Sequence record: PQ462667.1
DNA length: 64,000 bases
From: Escherichia phage HMD-P3
Reading direction: 5' to 3' (one strand)
Shown: positions 8,437 through 14,168 of the stretch, one piece after another
Layout: each line of letters starts with the position of its first letter
How positions within the stretch are numbered: the first letter of the stretch is position 1
The notes under the pieces: generated by a model
What the model saw: only the letters and a program-made list of their open reading frames with translations
Told to the model about the DNA's origin: nothing
Databases searched by the model: none
Made by a program: the position numbers and the translations under genes

Positions 8437-8626
8437 GGGTTTAAACGCCGCTTTGGAAAACGCATTAATGCAGCGCTGGGAAACTGGCTATAAGGATGGT
8501 GTTGAATCCTGCGCTACTATGCTAGAAGTTATTGCTAATACCTTAATGGAGAAAGGCAATAAAGAATTAGCTGAGCTATTAGACAGTATTGGGCAAAACT
8601 TCAGAGAACAGGTGAAAAATGCGTAG
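8405..8626 (+). CDS. hypothetical small early protein (73 aa)
   Basis: GAGGAG RBS 6 nt upstream of ATG 8405. Confidence 0.5.
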   Translation: MAFSKPMLPDKGLNAALENALMQRWETGYKDGVESCATMLEVIANTLMEKGNKELAELLDSIGQNFREQVKNA

Positions 8627-9434
8627 ATTAATTATTATTAGTGGTGCAGGTTTGAGTGTTGAAAGTGGTGTACGAGCTTTTCGTACTGATACTGCTAGCG
8701 GTAAAGCATTGTGGGATGATTATGATCTAGAAGAAGTATGTAATATTCATGCCTTTCGCGGTAATTTTTATCATAAAACCCATATGTTTTACAACAAGCG
8801 TCGTGAAGAACTAAAAACTGTTGAACCCAATCTTGCGCATTTGCGTATTGGTGAATGGTATAAACAATATCCAGGTCAAATAGTAAACTTGACTACCAAT
8901 GTTGATGACCTTATTGAGCGTGCTGGCGTTCCACATAGTGACATTCTGCACATTCACGGATATTTAAAAGAGGTTGTTGTAGCTGATAACTACAATAGTA
9001 GCAATAAACGGATTATTGATGTAGGATACAATTCTATTGATCCAGATGATTATAAATGGGTTAAACCTAATGTAATCTTCTTTGGAGAGCATGCTCCAGC
9101 ATATGCGGAGATGTACAATGTTTTTGATGGTATTACCAGTCAAGATATGATCATTGTGGTTGGTTGCTCCAACCAAGTAATTAACTTCTACTGGGAATTA
9201 TTTCCTGTTCTTAATTTGACTGCTGCTAAGCTAATGGTTGTTAACTACTATGATAGTGCCCTAGCGGTGGAACCGGGCTATCAAGGTATGACTCGTAGTG
9301 AGATGTATCAACTGGAAGAACGTGGTATCCCTTACTGGAGTAAAGGTGCGGTAGATGCTTTCAGTGATCCTGATTTTATTGCTCGTGTAGAAGCTCATTT
9401 AGGGGGTAGACCTTATGTATCAGGAACTAAGTAA
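8619..9434 (+). CDS. Sir2-family protein lacking a zinc-ribbon module (NAD-dependent deacetylase / NADase-like)
   Basis: Sirtuin NAD-binding motif GAGLSVESGVRAFR near the N-terminus and HIHG catalytic-His motif; no CxxC...CxxC pairs anywhere in the protein. Confidence 0.75.
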   Translation: MRRLIIISGAGLSVESGVRAFRTDTASGKALWDDYDLEEVCNIHAFRGNFYHKTHMFYNKRREELKTVEPNLAHLRIGEWYKQYPGQIVNLTTNVDDLIERAGVPHSDILHIHGYLKEVVVADNYNSSNKRIIDVGYNSIDPDDYKWVKPNVIFFGEHAPAYAEMYNVFDGITSQDMIIVVGCSNQVINFYWELFPVLNLTAAKLMVVNYYDSALAVEPGYQGMTRSEMYQLEERGIPYWSKGAVDAFSDPDFIARVEAHLGGRPYVSGTK

Positions 9435-9927
9435 TACTCCAATTATTTTTCTAGACATTGATGGGGTGCTCAATTCGAGCATCTCCCACCATCATGCACC
9501 TGATAATGAAAAGATTTTCTTTGGAAGTGACTGGGTTTTCAAACCGCTTCTCAAGGCTTTTCAGGACTTTATTCGTCCTTCTCCAATAATGATTGTTGGA
9601 GTATCATCTTGGTTCTCTGTCAGAAATGAGATGGAGAACGTTCAGATTATGACCGGATTAGGTCTTATCGATCGCTTTCTTGGTACAACGGATTTTACTG
9701 GTGGTGGATTATCTAGGGGTAATTCTGTTCTTCGTTTCGTCGAAAAGCATAAGCTCAAACATTGGTGTGTACTTGATGATGCGGGTGCTATGATGTATCA
9801 GTATCCAACGGTTATAGTCAACGGTAGAACTGGGATAAATCTTCAAGATTTAAAAGCTGTTAGCTATATGCTAGAATTTAGCCCAGATCTTGAAATGTGT
9901 AAATCCTTACAACAATTTAAGGTGTAA
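9415..9927 (+). CDS. HAD-superfamily phosphatase-like protein
   Basis: HAD motif I FLDIDGVLN at the N-terminus; 170 aa; overlaps the Sir2-like gene by 20 nt. Confidence 0.6.
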   Translation: MYQELSNTPIIFLDIDGVLNSSISHHHAPDNEKIFFGSDWVFKPLLKAFQDFIRPSPIMIVGVSSWFSVRNEMENVQIMTGLGLIDRFLGTTDFTGGGLSRGNSVLRFVEKHKLKHWCVLDDAGAMMYQYPTVIVNGRTGINLQDLKAVSYMLEFSPDLEMCKSLQQFKV

Positions 9928-9929
9928 AT

Positions 9930-10358
9930 ATGTTCAATAATGTATTCTCTAAAGAAGCTAACCCAATTTTGGTTAACTTTTGGCGTACTCTCCCGGCTAG
10001 CCTGTATAATGAGGCTATTAACTCCTTGAAAATATGGTGTGAGAATAACGAAATCTCTTTTGCTTTTAAAGATGATGTTGATGAGGCCCCTTGTATTGGT
10101 TTAAGTGTGCAGGTAGAGGAGGGTCTTGAAGAGATTGTCGGCTGGAAAGAGTTAGATGAAATGGGCTTAGTTTTTGCGTTAAACTATAAGCTGTTTATGC
10201 CTGCTAAGCATCGCCTCGTTGTTAACTATAAAACTAGTGAATCTCCTGGTTTTCAGGTTAATGAACGTTATGGTTGGTCTTACTCACCGGAAGAAGTAAA
10301 TGAGGGGATTCAGAAACTTCGACGTTTCGGGTATATAATCCCAGGTTTAACTGCTTAA
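9930..10358 (+). CDS. hypothetical protein, paralog A of a tandem pair
   Basis: Shares PCIG ... ELD-x-MGL-x-ALN ... PGL motifs with the next ORF. Confidence 0.6.
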   Translation: MFNNVFSKEANPILVNFWRTLPASLYNEAINSLKIWCENNEISFAFKDDVDEAPCIGLSVQVEEGLEEIVGWKELDEMGLVFALNYKLFMPAKHRLVVNYKTSESPGFQVNERYGWSYSPEEVNEGIQKLRRFGYIIPGLTA

Positions 10359-10367
10359 GGAGGCAGA

Positions 10368-10757
10368 ATGGAACAAGTATATTGGCGTCAGATTGACCCT
10401 AGTTTGGTGAAACGTGCGGAGAAGCTGCTACAACGTTGGTTGGGGGTAAGACAAGCCTCCTTTACTTTTCCGGAACAGCAAATAGATGACCCCTGCATTG
10501 GTGTTTTCCTGTCTGGATATGCCGGGGAATGGGAATTGGATTGGAATGAATTGTCTGCTATGGGCTTGATTGTTGCCCTAAACTTCTCTATATTCCATCC
10601 ACGTGGTTTGGCCATATGTCGTGTGCCGGATGATGGTTGTTCGCCCCATCTTTTACAGGTGGAAGATGATATTTGGGAGTACACTCCAGATATTCTCAAA
10701 GAAGCTAAAGAACAATTAAACCGTGTTGGGATCTATGTTCCGGGGTTAAGTGACTAA
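10368..10757 (+). CDS. hypothetical protein, paralog B of a tandem pair
   Basis: Same conserved blocks as 9930..10358 (DPCIGV, MGLIVALNF, PGLSD); AGGAG RBS upstream. Confidence 0.6.
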   Translation: MEQVYWRQIDPSLVKRAEKLLQRWLGVRQASFTFPEQQIDDPCIGVFLSGYAGEWELDWNELSAMGLIVALNFSIFHPRGLAICRVPDDGCSPHLLQVEDDIWEYTPDILKEAKEQLNRVGIYVPGLSD

Positions 10758-10851
10758 TGATTTTTATTAGCTGAACTCTGATTACCGAGTCATTTTGGCT
10801 CGGTTTTCTCTATGCTCAAGGACACTGATAGCACCTTTGGGAAAATTTTAC

Positions 10852-10880
10852 TTGCAGGATGCCCAAAATCTTGATATAAT
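10852..10880 (+). promoter_or_regulatory. strong sigma70-type promoter with extended -10 (TTGCAG, 17 bp, TGaTATAAT) with no ORF directly behind it
   Basis: -35 10852..10857, -10 10875..10880, followed by the T5-type downstream box ATTGAATTGAGAGA; the next convincing start codon is about 500 nt away. Confidence 0.6.
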
Positions 10881-11378
10881 ATTTATATTGAATTGAGAGA
10901 CATTAGTAAAAATTGATTTTGCTAATTTTTCTTGTTTACAATCCGCGATACGGAACAGTTAGGCTGCCCCATTAAGGGTTGTTTTAACTGTTACGTGTTA
11001 GTTTTTAAACAAATAATTAATAGAATACTTAGCGATCTACATCCCGTAGGAACCCTGGTAAGGCCTCGAAGCAACCTAGTGTGAGGTGGTTGTGAAGTGA
11101 GACGGGAAGAGTGAAAAACTCTGAGAAGTGATGACGTAAGGTATACTGCATCTAGTATGAGCTAGTATATGAAGCATTAGGTGAGCAAATCTGGCTTAGC
11201 GGCCATCCTCAAGGATTTGTGCGGTATAGTGAAGCGGCAGTGTAGCGTGAAAGGGGAAGTTGCCACCCCCCTTCAGTATTTGCGATTAATTGTTGAGAAA
11301 TTGACAGTAACAGTTGTTCTATTCTTTCTGAATAGTCCTAAAGAAAACTTATTTCATTTCCAACACAGGAGTATTGTT

Positions 11379-14168
11379 GTGTTCTCAATCCTACAAGGTC
11401 ATGCAGGATTTCATCGCGATTTAGCCACAGGCAATTGGCGGGAAGTTAAAGCAGAAAACTATCTTTTTGCTAAAAGATTTTCCTCAAAGCATCCTGAAGG
11501 TAAACCAGCTTCAATGCCCTTCAAGTTTGATGTAATTGATGAAGTTGATCCTCAAACCCTAGTAGAAATGCTCCCTCTTATGAGACGTTTAACGTCTGAC
11601 CCTCATATCGTTGCGGTACGAGGTCGATGTCTTGCACCTAAAAATAATGTGCGACGTAAGAAGGGCAACTTTAATGTATCTAACCCAAGTCATATAATTG
11701 CAATGGACGTGGATGGTATTGTAGATACAGGTGGTTGTAACAAGTTTGATCTTGTTGGCATGGCTCGACATATTATTAGAATGTTAAATAGTATTAGTGA
11801 GGATATGTTTCCTCTTGATGCAGGGTTTATCGCTCATGCATCGTCTTCGGCTGGGCTAAAACCAGGTATCCGAATGCACTTAATACTAGAATCTAATGTT
11901 AAAGTAACTCAGGGTCAAATCAAATTCTTATTTACATCTATCAACGAAAGTAGTAGACAAAAGTATGGCTTTGATATTGCCGACTTAGCTTATTACTCTT
12001 CCGTACAGCTCCATTATTTTGCAGATCCGTTATTTACTGATGGTATAGTAGATCCGTTTAAAGCGGAGGGTGCTTCACGTCTGGTATTTGTTAAGGGTTC
12101 TAAGGTAAACTTACCCAATAATCTGGTTGATTATGAAACAACTAGAGGTGAGTTTAAAGAGGAGTTTTACTCTTTACTCGACCAAATTAAGGGTAAAAAA
12201 GCTGCCTCTGATAAAGTAGAGGAAACTATCAGCGAACTAGAAGAAGCTGAGGATGGAGTGTACCTACGTATCATACCTAAACTCTATCACAGAGCTTTAG
12301 AGGATGGTGTTGATTTTGCGTGGCTAGAAAAAGAAATCCGTCCAGCCTTATCAGAATATATTGCAACTAAAGATAATAGTCGTAATATTCAAGATTACTT
12401 TAATAACGGTCGTAAACAGGCTCTGAAAGCGTTTGTTAATAATTCTAAACGCGATATACCTGATGTTTTAAAAGGTATTCCACTTAAAAAGCTAGAAACT
12501 AATTCTTTAGAAACTGATAACTTCTTGAAATTAAATACTGTACCACCAGAAGGTTATATGACTTTTGTAAAAGCAAGTCTAGGTACAGGTAAAACTACGG
12601 CGGTTGTGCGTTGGTTAGATTCAGGAGTTATTAAGGGTAATTTCTTAGCAATTACCAATACTCGAGCACTGGTATCTTCAAATGCTAAGAAATTTAGTGC
12701 AGGACAATATGATAAGTCTGTAGATATGCTTAATTTTAAGCGTGGCGCTATTGACCGTATGTCCACAACTATTCACTCTTTGCATAAGTTCAAGAGTTTT
12801 ATTGGTCAAATCGATGCAATCTTTATCGATGAATGTGATGCTGTAATGAATGACCTATTATTCGCCCCGGTTGTTAAACAACGTCGTGAATGTATTCAGG
12901 TTCTTCGGGATATTCTTGCAACTGCAAAAATCATTATATTATCTGATGGGGATATTAGTGCTGAAACAATTGAAGCATATGGTTCTTTGATTGAGTTTGA
13001 TAAACCGGTTGCATTTTATAATCACCACCGTAAGATGCTGTCAAAAGCTCATGCTTATGAATTCCCTGATGAATCCAGTATTTGGGTTGCACTTCAGACT
13101 TCTCTAGAGATGGGTGAGAAGTCTATCCTAGTATCTGACTGTGGTCCAGATGAACTGAATGAGAAGGGTATGGCATTGCGTCGTAATACGGGTGCGTTAG
13201 TTAAGGAAATCCACTCAAACTCTACGTCTGATGTAGATATTCGACGTATTCTGGATTACACAACTAATGAGCTAATTGACCAACAAATTGATTGCTTATT
13301 ATGTAGTCCATCCGTAACGAGTGGTGTTGACTTTAACTATTTTGATAACGTATTCGTTATCACTAGAACCTCAAACCAAGCGCCAAACATGCGTTTTCAA
13401 GCAATCAGGCGCGACCGTGGCGCTCAGAACATTTATTATTTTATTGATAAATCTACGAGTGGATTCTCCGCAGGTTCTGAACAATATAACATTGATGAAG
13501 GTTGGCTGGAGTTAGCACAGCAATTATACGCACGTCGTAGGGAGCTGGAATCTAGGAACTATACTAGTACTTTACGTTATTACTTGCTTGATCAGGGTGC
13601 AACTATTGATATTTTCAGTGAAAGCTGGGGAACTATCGAAGGTGCAGGAAAAGAGTATACGGAAGAGCGAATCAAAGCTATTTTGTATTCAACTCCTGAT
13701 TATTGTGCTCCACGCCATGCAGATGCGTATGAGGCTAAACTACTTCTTGTTCGCTATTATCATCTTGAGTCTATTAAAGATGTAACAGTTGAGCACGTTG
13801 AACAATATATCAAGGATAAACCGAATGATCGAGCTGCATTCTTCCATAAGATGCACGAGATGTTCTGGGAAGATATTAAGAAGTGTTCAAATGTCACTAT
13901 CAAACCATTCATAGAAGCTCTGAAAGGTAAGAAGAAAGATTTCTTCCTTAAAACAGGTCAGAGTGCTAACCCAAAATATGCAAGAATGTATCTTGGTATG
14001 ATGGGTATTGGTAAGGATATGAACACTGAAAATATTGTAGACTGGTACAGAACCTATTGTAAAATCGAGTGTATGCCAATCCCGTATAAGTTTATGACTG
14101 ATGAGGAGAAACATATGCATGATGAAGCAATGGCAGAGCTAGGTGCTAGAAATGACAGTGAAGAATAA
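11379..14168 (+). CDS. replication ATPase / helicase-like protein (putative origin-binding protein)
   Basis: Walker A SLGTGKTT and Walker B IFIDECD in the middle of a protein of about 930 aa. Start placed at GTG 11379 (AGGAG RBS 7 nt upstream); the longest ORF begins at 11181 but that extension has no RBS. Confidence 0.7.
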   Translation: MFSILQGHAGFHRDLATGNWREVKAENYLFAKRFSSKHPEGKPASMPFKFDVIDEVDPQTLVEMLPLMRRLTSDPHIVAVRGRCLAPKNNVRRKKGNFNVSNPSHIIAMDVDGIVDTGGCNKFDLVGMARHIIRMLNSISEDMFPLDAGFIAHASSSAGLKPGIRMHLILESNVKVTQGQIKFLFTSINESSRQKYGFDIADLAYYSSVQLHYFADPLFTDGIVDPFKAEGASRLVFVKGSKVNLPNNLVDYETTRGEFKEEFYSLLDQIKGKKAASDKVEETISELEEAEDGVYLRIIPKLYHRALEDGVDFAWLEKEIRPALSEYIATKDNSRNIQDYFNNGRKQALKAFVNNSKRDIPDVLKGIPLKKLETNSLETDNFLKLNTVPPEGYMTFVKASLGTGKTTAVVRWLDSGVIKGNFLAITNTRALVSSNAKKFSAGQYDKSVDMLNFKRGAIDRMSTTIHSLHKFKSFIGQIDAIFIDECDAVMNDLLFAPVVKQRRECIQVLRDILATAKIIILSDGDISAETIEAYGSLIEFDKPVAFYNHHRKMLSKAHAYEFPDESSIWVALQTSLEMGEKSILVSDCGPDELNEKGMALRRNTGALVKEIHSNSTSDVDIRRILDYTTNELIDQQIDCLLCSPSVTSGVDFNYFDNVFVITRTSNQAPNMRFQAIRRDRGAQNIYYFIDKSTSGFSAGSEQYNIDEGWLELAQQLYARRRELESRNYTSTLRYYLLDQGATIDIFSESWGTIEGAGKEYTEERIKAILYSTPDYCAPRHADAYEAKLLLVRYYHLESIKDVTVEHVEQYIKDKPNDRAAFFHKMHEMFWEDIKKCSNVTIKPFIEALKGKKKDFFLKTGQSANPKYARMYLGMMGIGKDMNTENIVDWYRTYCKIECMPIPYKFMTDEEKHMHDEAMAELGARNDSEE

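Follow-up and report, generated by a model that had tools for sequence, protein, structure and literature searches.

Two paralogous early genes of a T5-like phage form a row of four DUF7415 modules, one of which keeps the canonical motif

The gene pair and its module anatomy

Escherichia phage HMD-P3 (record PQ462667.1) is a T5-like phage (Tequintavirus, Demerecviridae), and a stretch of 64,000 nucleotides of its DNA, hereafter the window, was analyzed. The subject of this study is a pair of small open reading frames (ORFs), gene A and gene B, which lie head to tail on the + strand at 9930-10757, where the original prediction had placed them, and which are the orthologues of T5.106 and T5.107. 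Each encoded protein consists of a fused pair of DUF7415 modules, a C-terminal helix, and a PGL tail, so that four modules stand in a row at the locus, and we consider the structural and evolutionary description given below, taken as a whole, to be highly probable. The 1.8-kb stretch round the pair is matched by 525 phage records and shares 96.8% identity with Salmonella phage SP33. The T5 proteins (YP_006934.1 for T5.106 and YP_006935.1 for T5.107) agree with those of A and B in position, operon, and full-length family matches, and nothing of substance differs between them. Catalogue entries already exist for both genes and for their domain family, and the locus itself is known; what is added here is the nested duplication, the complementary divergence of the two copies, the distribution of the family, and the absence of a fold match.

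The original prediction, which was made from the letters alone, had described two ORFs sharing conserved blocks in the same order. All the named blocks were found to align in order (PCIG, KELDEMGLVFALN / NELSAMGLIVALN, WSYSPEE / WEYTPD, and IPGLT / VPGLS), and a BLASTP comparison of A with B gave 40 identities over 125 residues (32%) with one gap and E = 1e-20. The Smith-Waterman score was 166, compared with a mean of 27.8, a standard deviation of 4.7, and a maximum of 56 in 2,000 shuffles, resulting in a z of 29, which is clearly better than the shuffled controls against which the prediction had proposed to be judged. Both proteins were also matched by Pfam DUF7415 (PF24187), a model of 53 positions with a gathering score of 27 bits, at 126 bits for A and 111.6 bits for B, and both matched phrog_2502 over its full length (positions 2-134 of 134; E 4.9e-62 for A and 3.3e-61 for B). 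The two genes were intact in all 32 T5-like genomes examined, in which the median pairwise ratio of nonsynonymous to synonymous substitution rates (dN/dS) was 0.08 for A and 0.11 for B, indicating that they are real coding genes. Both are under purifying selection.

What the original prediction had overlooked is that each gene holds an internal repeat of a catalogued Pfam domain. The Pfam model matched twice in each protein, and each of the four halves exceeded 27 bits when searched alone (Table 1). Because the Pfam seed could hold both kinds of half, the repeat was also examined independently by hhalign, using a profile of 111 single-module proteins. The N-half profile aligned with this single-module profile over 51 co-linear columns with a probability of 70.5% and a score of 25.1, compared with a mean of 8.3 (standard deviation, 1.7; maximum, 13.1) in 150 column-shuffled controls, with tryptophan, helix, and hairpin each falling on its counterpart. 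The C-halves matched the same profile with a probability of 99.9% and E 5e-33. At the level of plain sequence, the N-half and C-half within each protein were not detectably similar (Smith-Waterman z of only 0.2-2.2), the repeat being visible only at the profile level, which places the internal duplication long before that of the gene. An AlphaFold (AF2) model of B, with a predicted local distance difference test (pLDDT) score of 91.5 and a predicted template modeling (pTM) score of 0.85, was consistent with the repeat: the order strand, helix, strand, strand occurs twice, with a C-terminal helix (residues 107-120) after the second round. The DUF7415 module itself is composed of two helices joined by a glycine turn, followed by a beta-hairpin and a W-x-Y strand. 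Thus, the structure prediction that had been suggested as a check bore out the repeated order of elements, and it yielded no significant match to a solved structure.

The four modules are not equally preserved. The canonical consensus, DWNELS..GLI..IN..ILHP.GLA..R.P.TG.S.G.LV.DDG.WEY, has 50 consensus positions, and on a hidden Markov model (HMM) of 111 single-module proteins, from which A and B were left out, the C-module of B scored 75.2 bits, keeping 25 of the 50 positions. Its motif, DWNELS..GLI..LN..IFHP.GLA..R.P..G.SP.LL..DD.WEY, makes it the only one of the four modules to keep the canonical form. The C-module of A reached 29.0 bits and kept 14 of the 50 positions, with changes such as HP to MP and GLA to HRL, and is hence regarded as degenerate. 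The N-modules were not detected by the single-module HMM. The same division was found in all three lineages that carry two genes, in which B-type C-modules, together with those of single-copy proteins, scored 53-88 bits versus 7-35 bits for A-type C-modules.

Table 1. Features of the gene pair and of its operon in the window (residue numbers refer to the encoded protein; bit scores of modules are for the module searched alone).
Feature	Position	Strand	Remarks
Sir2-family gene	8619..9434	+	Pfam SIR2 86.8 bits; upstream, same operon
HAD_SAK_2 phosphatase-like gene	9415..9927	+	Pfam HAD_SAK_2 72.1 bits; directly upstream of A
Shine-Dalgarno-like AAGGTG for A	9919..9924	+	5 nt before ATG; overlaps end of HAD gene; read directly from the sequence
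Gene A	9930..10358	+	142 aa; T5.106 orthologue (90.8% identity); first-copy type; dN/dS 0.08
A N-terminal DUF7415 module	9972..10124	+	residues 15-65; 74.8 bits; closest to N-module of single-copy relatives
A C-terminal DUF7415 module	10131..10292	+	residues 68-121; 55.1 bits (Pfam); degenerate
A C-terminal helix and IPGLTA tail	10293..10355	+	P, G, and L (nearly) invariant in alignment
Shine-Dalgarno AAGGAGG for B	10357..10363	+	overlaps TAA stop of A; 4 nt before ATG of B; read directly from the sequence
Gene B	10368..10757	+	129 aa; T5.107 orthologue (94.6% identity); second-copy type; dN/dS 0.11
B N-terminal DUF7415 module	10374..10529	+	residues 3-54; 60.4 bits; diverged
B C-terminal DUF7415 module	10530..10691	+	residues 55-108; 54.8 bits (Pfam); canonical motif kept
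B C-terminal helix and VPGLSD tail	10692..10754	+	helix at residues 107-120 in B model
Intrinsic terminator	10784..10812	+	9-bp stem, loop of 3, T-rich tail; closes operon

A and B are the final two genes of an early operon that runs Sir2, HAD, A, B, and terminator, and they are closely spaced and probably translationally coupled, as indicated by the spacing, the overlapping Shine-Dalgarno sequences, and the terminator that follows B. The stop codon of the HAD gene lies 2 nt ahead of the start codon of A, and A may likewise be coupled to the HAD gene. Annotated terminators are present at the equivalent place in T5 and in phage Lindwurm, the counterpart operon of T5 begins after the nrdD terminator, and the gene of a replication-origin-binding protein lies downstream of the operon. 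The Sir2 gene was a conserved upstream neighbor of the DUF7415 gene or genes in every Demerecviridae-like lineage examined. The HAD gene at 9415-9927 also matches phrog_18062, which is labeled 'Sir2', and RefSeq likewise gives the name Sir2 to T5.105, the T5 orthologue of this gene; the label is probably an error that arose from a gene-fusion or overlap artifact. In T5, two additional small ORFs (T5.103 and T5.104) lie between the Sir2 and HAD genes, which in the window overlap directly. The G+C content of B is 45.1%, compared with 39.2% for A and also for the whole window, and the length of B varies from 129 to 136 residues among T5-like genomes, with the insertions and deletions falling in the linker between its two modules.

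History of the duplication

Across Demerecviridae-like genomes, the gene order was Sir2, an optional HAD gene, DUF7415 as one or two genes, and the origin-binding protein gene. The copy number in related phages, another check that had been proposed, was thus found to vary at otherwise syntenic loci: two DUF7415 genes were present in T5-like phages, in the L143/L144 lineage, and in Sugarlandvirus-like phages (L145/L146 and KpGranit), and a single one in L140 (protein P0048) and L142 (P0050). A neighbor-joining tree of 29 two-module proteins, calculated from 131 columns with capped distances and 500 bootstraps, placed the first-copy proteins of the T5-like, L143, and Sugarlandvirus-like lineages in one clade with a bootstrap value of 93%. 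The three lineages, therefore, separated only after the tandem duplication. Protein A was also more similar to the other first copies (35-36% identity) than to the second copies of other lineages (22-28%). With the genes adjacent, on the same strand, and of one architecture, the old tandem duplication that the original prediction had read from the pair is supported.

Comparison with the single-copy proteins P0048, P0050, and P0051 suggests what each copy has retained. Their N-modules gave BLOSUM scores of 110, 122, and 84 to A and of 35, 27, and 13 to B, and their C-modules gave scores of 145, 118, and 134 to B and of 63, 64, and 75 to A. The tails of P0048 and P0051 were also nearer to that of A than to that of B. 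Judged by these sequences, the divergence of the two copies is complementary, A retaining the ancestral N-module and tail, and B retaining the canonical C-module. Such complementary retention is what would be predicted for a duplication followed by the degeneration of complementary parts. Alternatively, the single-copy genes might be recombinants of A and B that arose by unequal crossing-over; this is the less probable origin, as the tail of B would then be expected. A domain duplication within one gene came first and an old tandem duplication of that gene followed, giving the four modules of the locus. The subfunctionalisation that had been predicted is thus supported at the sequence level only, where complementary modules are retained and both genes are under purifying selection. 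As a case of subfunctionalisation at the domain level in a phage, the locus is small and clean, with four modules of which one is still canonical, and the additions made here are useful but answer no long-standing question.

In L140, an ORF of 86 residues (L140:5390-5650) follows the DUF7415 gene at the position that the second copy occupies in other lineages. A PHROGs match was not found for it, and it may represent either a remnant or else an insertion of unrelated origin.

Distribution of DUF7415 and the possible role of the pair

Searches for a function were largely empty. For A and B, no match to a nuclease family, a tail family, or any other named family was obtained from Pfam, PHROGs, NCBIfam, or PADLOC, the last of which is a library of defense proteins and not of anti-defense proteins, and the PHROGs category of phrog_2502 is 'unknown function'. 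Searches of PDB sequences with two-domain and core profiles gave nothing significant, a ParB stretch at E 0.49 being among two weak matches. Foldseek searches against the PDB gave nothing below E 0.4 for either the two-domain form, for which the model of B, the paralogue of A, was used, or the single-module model (pLDDT 92), and those against BFVD returned only members of the DUF7415 family. No literature on DUF7415, PF24187, the phrog identifiers, or T5.106/T5.107 was found in main texts, and T5-like phages are outside the coverage of the HIDEN-SEQ preprint. The sole experimental data found come from a transcriptome-wide CRISPRi-ART knock-down screen of T5, in which T5.107 was among 17 'Fit' genes with a score of -2.90 and a p of 0.0215, and T5.106 was 'Not Fit' with a score of -3.28 and a p of 0.167 (PMC11879866, supplements). 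T5.107 was described there as of "entirely unknown function" (Nat Microbiol 2025, PMC11879866). The asymmetry between the two calls agrees with B holding the only canonical module.

The wider family was surveyed by an exhaustive profile search of 1.84 billion cluster representatives, which gave only 154 matches at E < 1e-3, a few of them spurious repeat proteins. In most cases, the match was a protein 65-110 residues long that carries one canonical module (phrog_3954, 33705, and 1812). The core of these proteins, about 54 residues, shared 50-60% identity even between single-module members from very different phages and had N, H, S, R, W, and Y as conserved polar residues. Such proteins, found in T4-like, P2-like, lambdoid, and P4-like elements, share with A and B the core of the B C-module, the acidity, and the location on the early or replication side; unlike A and B, they have one module and not two, have no PGL tail, and are often fused. 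The acidity is general, the isoelectric point (pI) being 4.75 for A (net charge, -7) and 4.57 for B (net charge, -9), and the median is 4.5 when two modules are present and 4.8-4.9 when there is one. In representative bacterial genomes, no more than 11 loci were recovered by a strict pattern search, 10 of which lie in Gammaproteobacteria.

Many of the genomic contexts are those of early replication or nucleotide metabolism, namely the nrdD-nrdG interval, nudE, the neighborhood of replication gene A (gpA), and the early regions of Rac-like prophages and P4-like elements. Klebsiella T4-like phages have a DUF7415 ORF of 77 residues between nrdD and nrdG, and Morganella phage MP1 has one of 131 residues at the same place; in Pseudotevenvirus and Slopekvirus the gene lies two genes downstream of nudE, and in Aeromonas phage PX29 it follows rnlA. 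Among 80 IMG/VR loci sampled for P2-like prophage contexts, gpA adjoined DUF7415 in 37, and tandem DUF7415 paralogues were not seen in this sample. In many P2-like prophages (L025-L069; for example, a 157-residue ORF in L025), the module is appended to an Orf83/DUF5405 protein directly upstream of gpA, and in others it is carried by a protein with a 113-residue domain directly downstream of gpA, followed by a D12-like DNA methyltransferase. In P2 itself (L147), Orf83 (DUF5405) is without the C-terminal DUF7415 module. DUF7415 was also found fused to a PF04447 dATP/dGTP pyrophosphohydrolase (P0155 and P0150; 11 contigs, in early regions of Rac-like prophages) and to HTH_37 (P0298; 15 contigs), and at the N-terminus of a 317-residue protein in the early region of a P4-like element. 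Two candidate relationships were dropped. A "MazG-like" reading by eye of the 113-residue N-domain was not confirmed by Pfam, PHROGs, NCBIfam, the PDB, or BLASTP against the PF04447 fusion, and the remark "similar to ORF91" for T5.106 in the T5 record did not lead to the family, as Orf91 of P2 is DUF3850 and Orf83 of P2 is DUF5405, neither being DUF7415.

The small size of the family (154 cluster representatives), its acidity throughout, and the occurrence of a core of about 54 residues alone or in fusions argue for a binding module and not an enzyme or a DNA binder, and the high identity of the core among very different phages argues for a conserved partner. We, therefore, propose tentatively the following mode of action. 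A and B would be small, acidic, non-enzymatic binding proteins. Single-module relatives would probably act as homo-oligomers, each two-module chain would probably be a built-in pseudo-dimer, and A and B would probably act jointly as a hetero-oligomer with one canonical binding site, the C-module of B, for which the three degenerate modules may serve as a scaffold. This site might dock, in the early DNA-synthesis phase of infection, onto a conserved partner, for which we favor a replication or deoxynucleoside triphosphate (dNTP)-supply protein of the host or the phage, or else onto a nucleotide-like ligand. In more general terms, and with the same reserve, DUF7415 may be a phage-specific module, of a fold not seen in solved structures, that docks on a conserved gammaproteobacterial replication or dNTP-supply factor or on a nucleotide-derived ligand, and T5.106/T5.107 may be a hetero-oligomer with a single canonical site that is needed for efficient early DNA synthesis. 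If true, this would account for the presence of T5.107 among the few 'Fit' T5 genes whose role is undescribed. As a compromise of description and mode of action, the explanation as a whole is the one to which we give slightly better than an even chance. DUF7415 is in any case a reasonable experimental target, considering its spread over T5-like, T4-like, P2-like, lambdoid, and P4-like elements, its lack of a fold match among solved structures, its fusions in some phages to enzymes that handle dNTPs, and the fitness effect of T5.107.

Several points weigh against this explanation. As for the repeat, a direct hhalign comparison of the N-half with the two-domain C-half aligned only a helix with a probability of 2.7%, leaving the modules unaligned, and the Pfam model may match both halves partly through the construction of its seed alignment. 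As for the history, the tree is a neighbor-joining tree on about 130 columns. As for the role, the early contexts are weak evidence because nucleotide-metabolism genes abound in such regions of large phages in any case; the late genes gpL and gpX flank the DUF7415 gene, a small ORF, in about 20 of the 80 IMG/VR loci, and a thymidylate kinase fusion (P0088) comes from a single 4-kb contig. The fitness call of T5.107 is marginal, and the origin-binding protein T5.108 was also 'Not Fit', indicating that the screen of T5 is insensitive (PMC11879866). The partner or ligand is what we infer, as are the hetero-oligomer of A and B and the pseudo-dimer packing.

The strongest alternative is that A and B act in host takeover or anti-defense, as the original prediction had suggested, being small acidic inhibitors or 'sponges' of immune-signal nucleotides whose duplication reflects an arms race. 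Both proteins are small, acidic, and expressed early, the family is patchy and occupies accessory-gene positions in P2-like prophages, T4-like phages, and satellites, its copy number varies between lineages, the neighbors Sir2, HAD, and NudE handle NAD or nucleotides, and the polar core is conserved strongly, as would befit a ligand pocket. Functional analogies, and only that, are offered by the sponges Tad1, Tad2, and Acb2 and by the small acidic early inhibitors Ocr and Gp2 of T7, which resemble A and B in being small, early, without enzymatic motifs, probably oligomeric, and acidic. A and B differ from these proteins in that they show no significant sequence or fold match to a solved structure and in that they are under strong purifying selection and conserved family-wide. 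A match to a defense-related or other functional family was not obtained, PADLOC again giving no match with its library of defense and not anti-defense proteins, and a description as sponge or inhibitor was absent among the top 50 fold hits of either PDB search, in which no solved structure matched significantly. Furthermore, A and B were present throughout the 32 T5-like genomes and are retained across the lineages of the family, with dN/dS near 0.1 and no diversifying selection seen. In the knock-down screen, T5.107 mattered, if marginally, on a laboratory K-12 host, and anti-defense genes irrelevant to the strain did not score (PMC11879866). Family-wide retention, purifying selection, and the fitness effect of T5.107 are compatible with anti-defense, and yet they make us lean towards a core early function. 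Thus, the anti-defense explanation fits less well than a binding role in early DNA synthesis, and we regard it as unlikely, though it is the alternative most worth keeping in mind.

Less probable still, and in our opinion rather doubtful, is that DUF7415 is a nucleotide sensor or allosteric module, comparable to the ATP-cone or ACT domains, that tunes fused or neighboring enzymes (dNTP pyrophosphohydrolase, thymidylate kinase, and NrdD) or a helix-turn-helix (HTH) regulator according to nucleotide levels. Sensor domains are typically recognized by just such a pattern, in which a single small module is fused to nucleotide enzymes as well as to an HTH domain; members also lie between nrdD and nrdG, and the invariant positions include polar N and S as well as glycine. 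However, the net charge is acidic with only one conserved basic residue for phosphate binding, most members are stand-alone proteins of 65-90 residues, similarity to a known ligand-binding fold was not found, and three of the four T5 modules are without the conserved motif.

It is very improbable that the proteins are DNA-binding regulators with a minimal winged helix-turn-helix binding DNA near the origin or the promoters that follow B. Among the best PDB fold hits of the single-module model, MarR-type and other winged-helix proteins were numerous, the order helix, turn, helix, and beta-hairpin is shared with the MarR, MexR, and SlyA type, the genes adjoin those of initiators (gpA and the T5 origin-binding protein), and the weak ParB stretch pointed the same way. 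These fold hits were nevertheless at chance level (E >= 0.46, probability <= 0.13, and TM score <= 0.27 among the MarR-type hits, the list maximum of 0.35 belonging to an unrelated protein), as was the E value of the ParB match. DUF7415 is also acidic and not basic and is without the full three-helix bundle; the bulk charge of the uniformly acidic family argues against DNA binding, and one member already has HTH_37 as a separate domain.

Finally, the public names, 'exonuclease' or 'Phage exonuclease (ACLAME 70)' for A and 'tail tube protein' for B, although present in several GenBank and UniProt records, have virtually no chance of being right and are unsupported and not to be trusted, as no nuclease or tail family was matched by sequence or fold (Pfam, PHROGs, NCBIfam, the PDB, and Foldseek), the genes sit in an early operon among replication genes and outside the late structural module, and two unrelated names on two paralogues are typical of name propagation.

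The non-coding leader downstream of the pair

Between the terminator of B and the origin-binding protein gene lies a non-coding stretch of about 600 bp (10758-11385 in the window, with a core at about 10945-11385). In all Demerecviridae-like lineages seen, a gap was kept at this place; it spans about 430-620 bp, and in most of them about 600 bp. Sigma-70-like promoters were noted within it at 10852-10880 and 10913-10942. When 10945-11385 was aligned with the counterparts in L140, L143, and L145, RNAalifold gave a consensus of 51 pairs in 12 helices. Pairing was possible in 94.6% of cells, compared with 79.1 +/- 2.0% in 500 shuffles, none of which was as high, and with 37-49% when the partners were slid by 1-3 columns; pairs changing on both sides numbered 24, compared with 14.3 in shuffles and 1-6 when slid, the structure having been derived from the same four sequences that were used to score it. 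The z-score of the single-sequence minimum free energy was only -0.58, and no Rfam family matched the leader. The stretch could be an unrecognized structured 5' leader RNA or an origin element acting at the DNA level, and it is reported as a lead and not as a result.

The ORF of the origin-binding protein, as called mechanically, spans 11181-14168 from a GTG at 11181 and encodes 995 residues. Its PHROG match begins at residue 67, and T5.108 has 928 residues; the true start is probably the GTG at 11379, which has AGGAG at 11368-11372 ahead of it. Several GenBank records annotate 'hypothetical proteins' within the leader.

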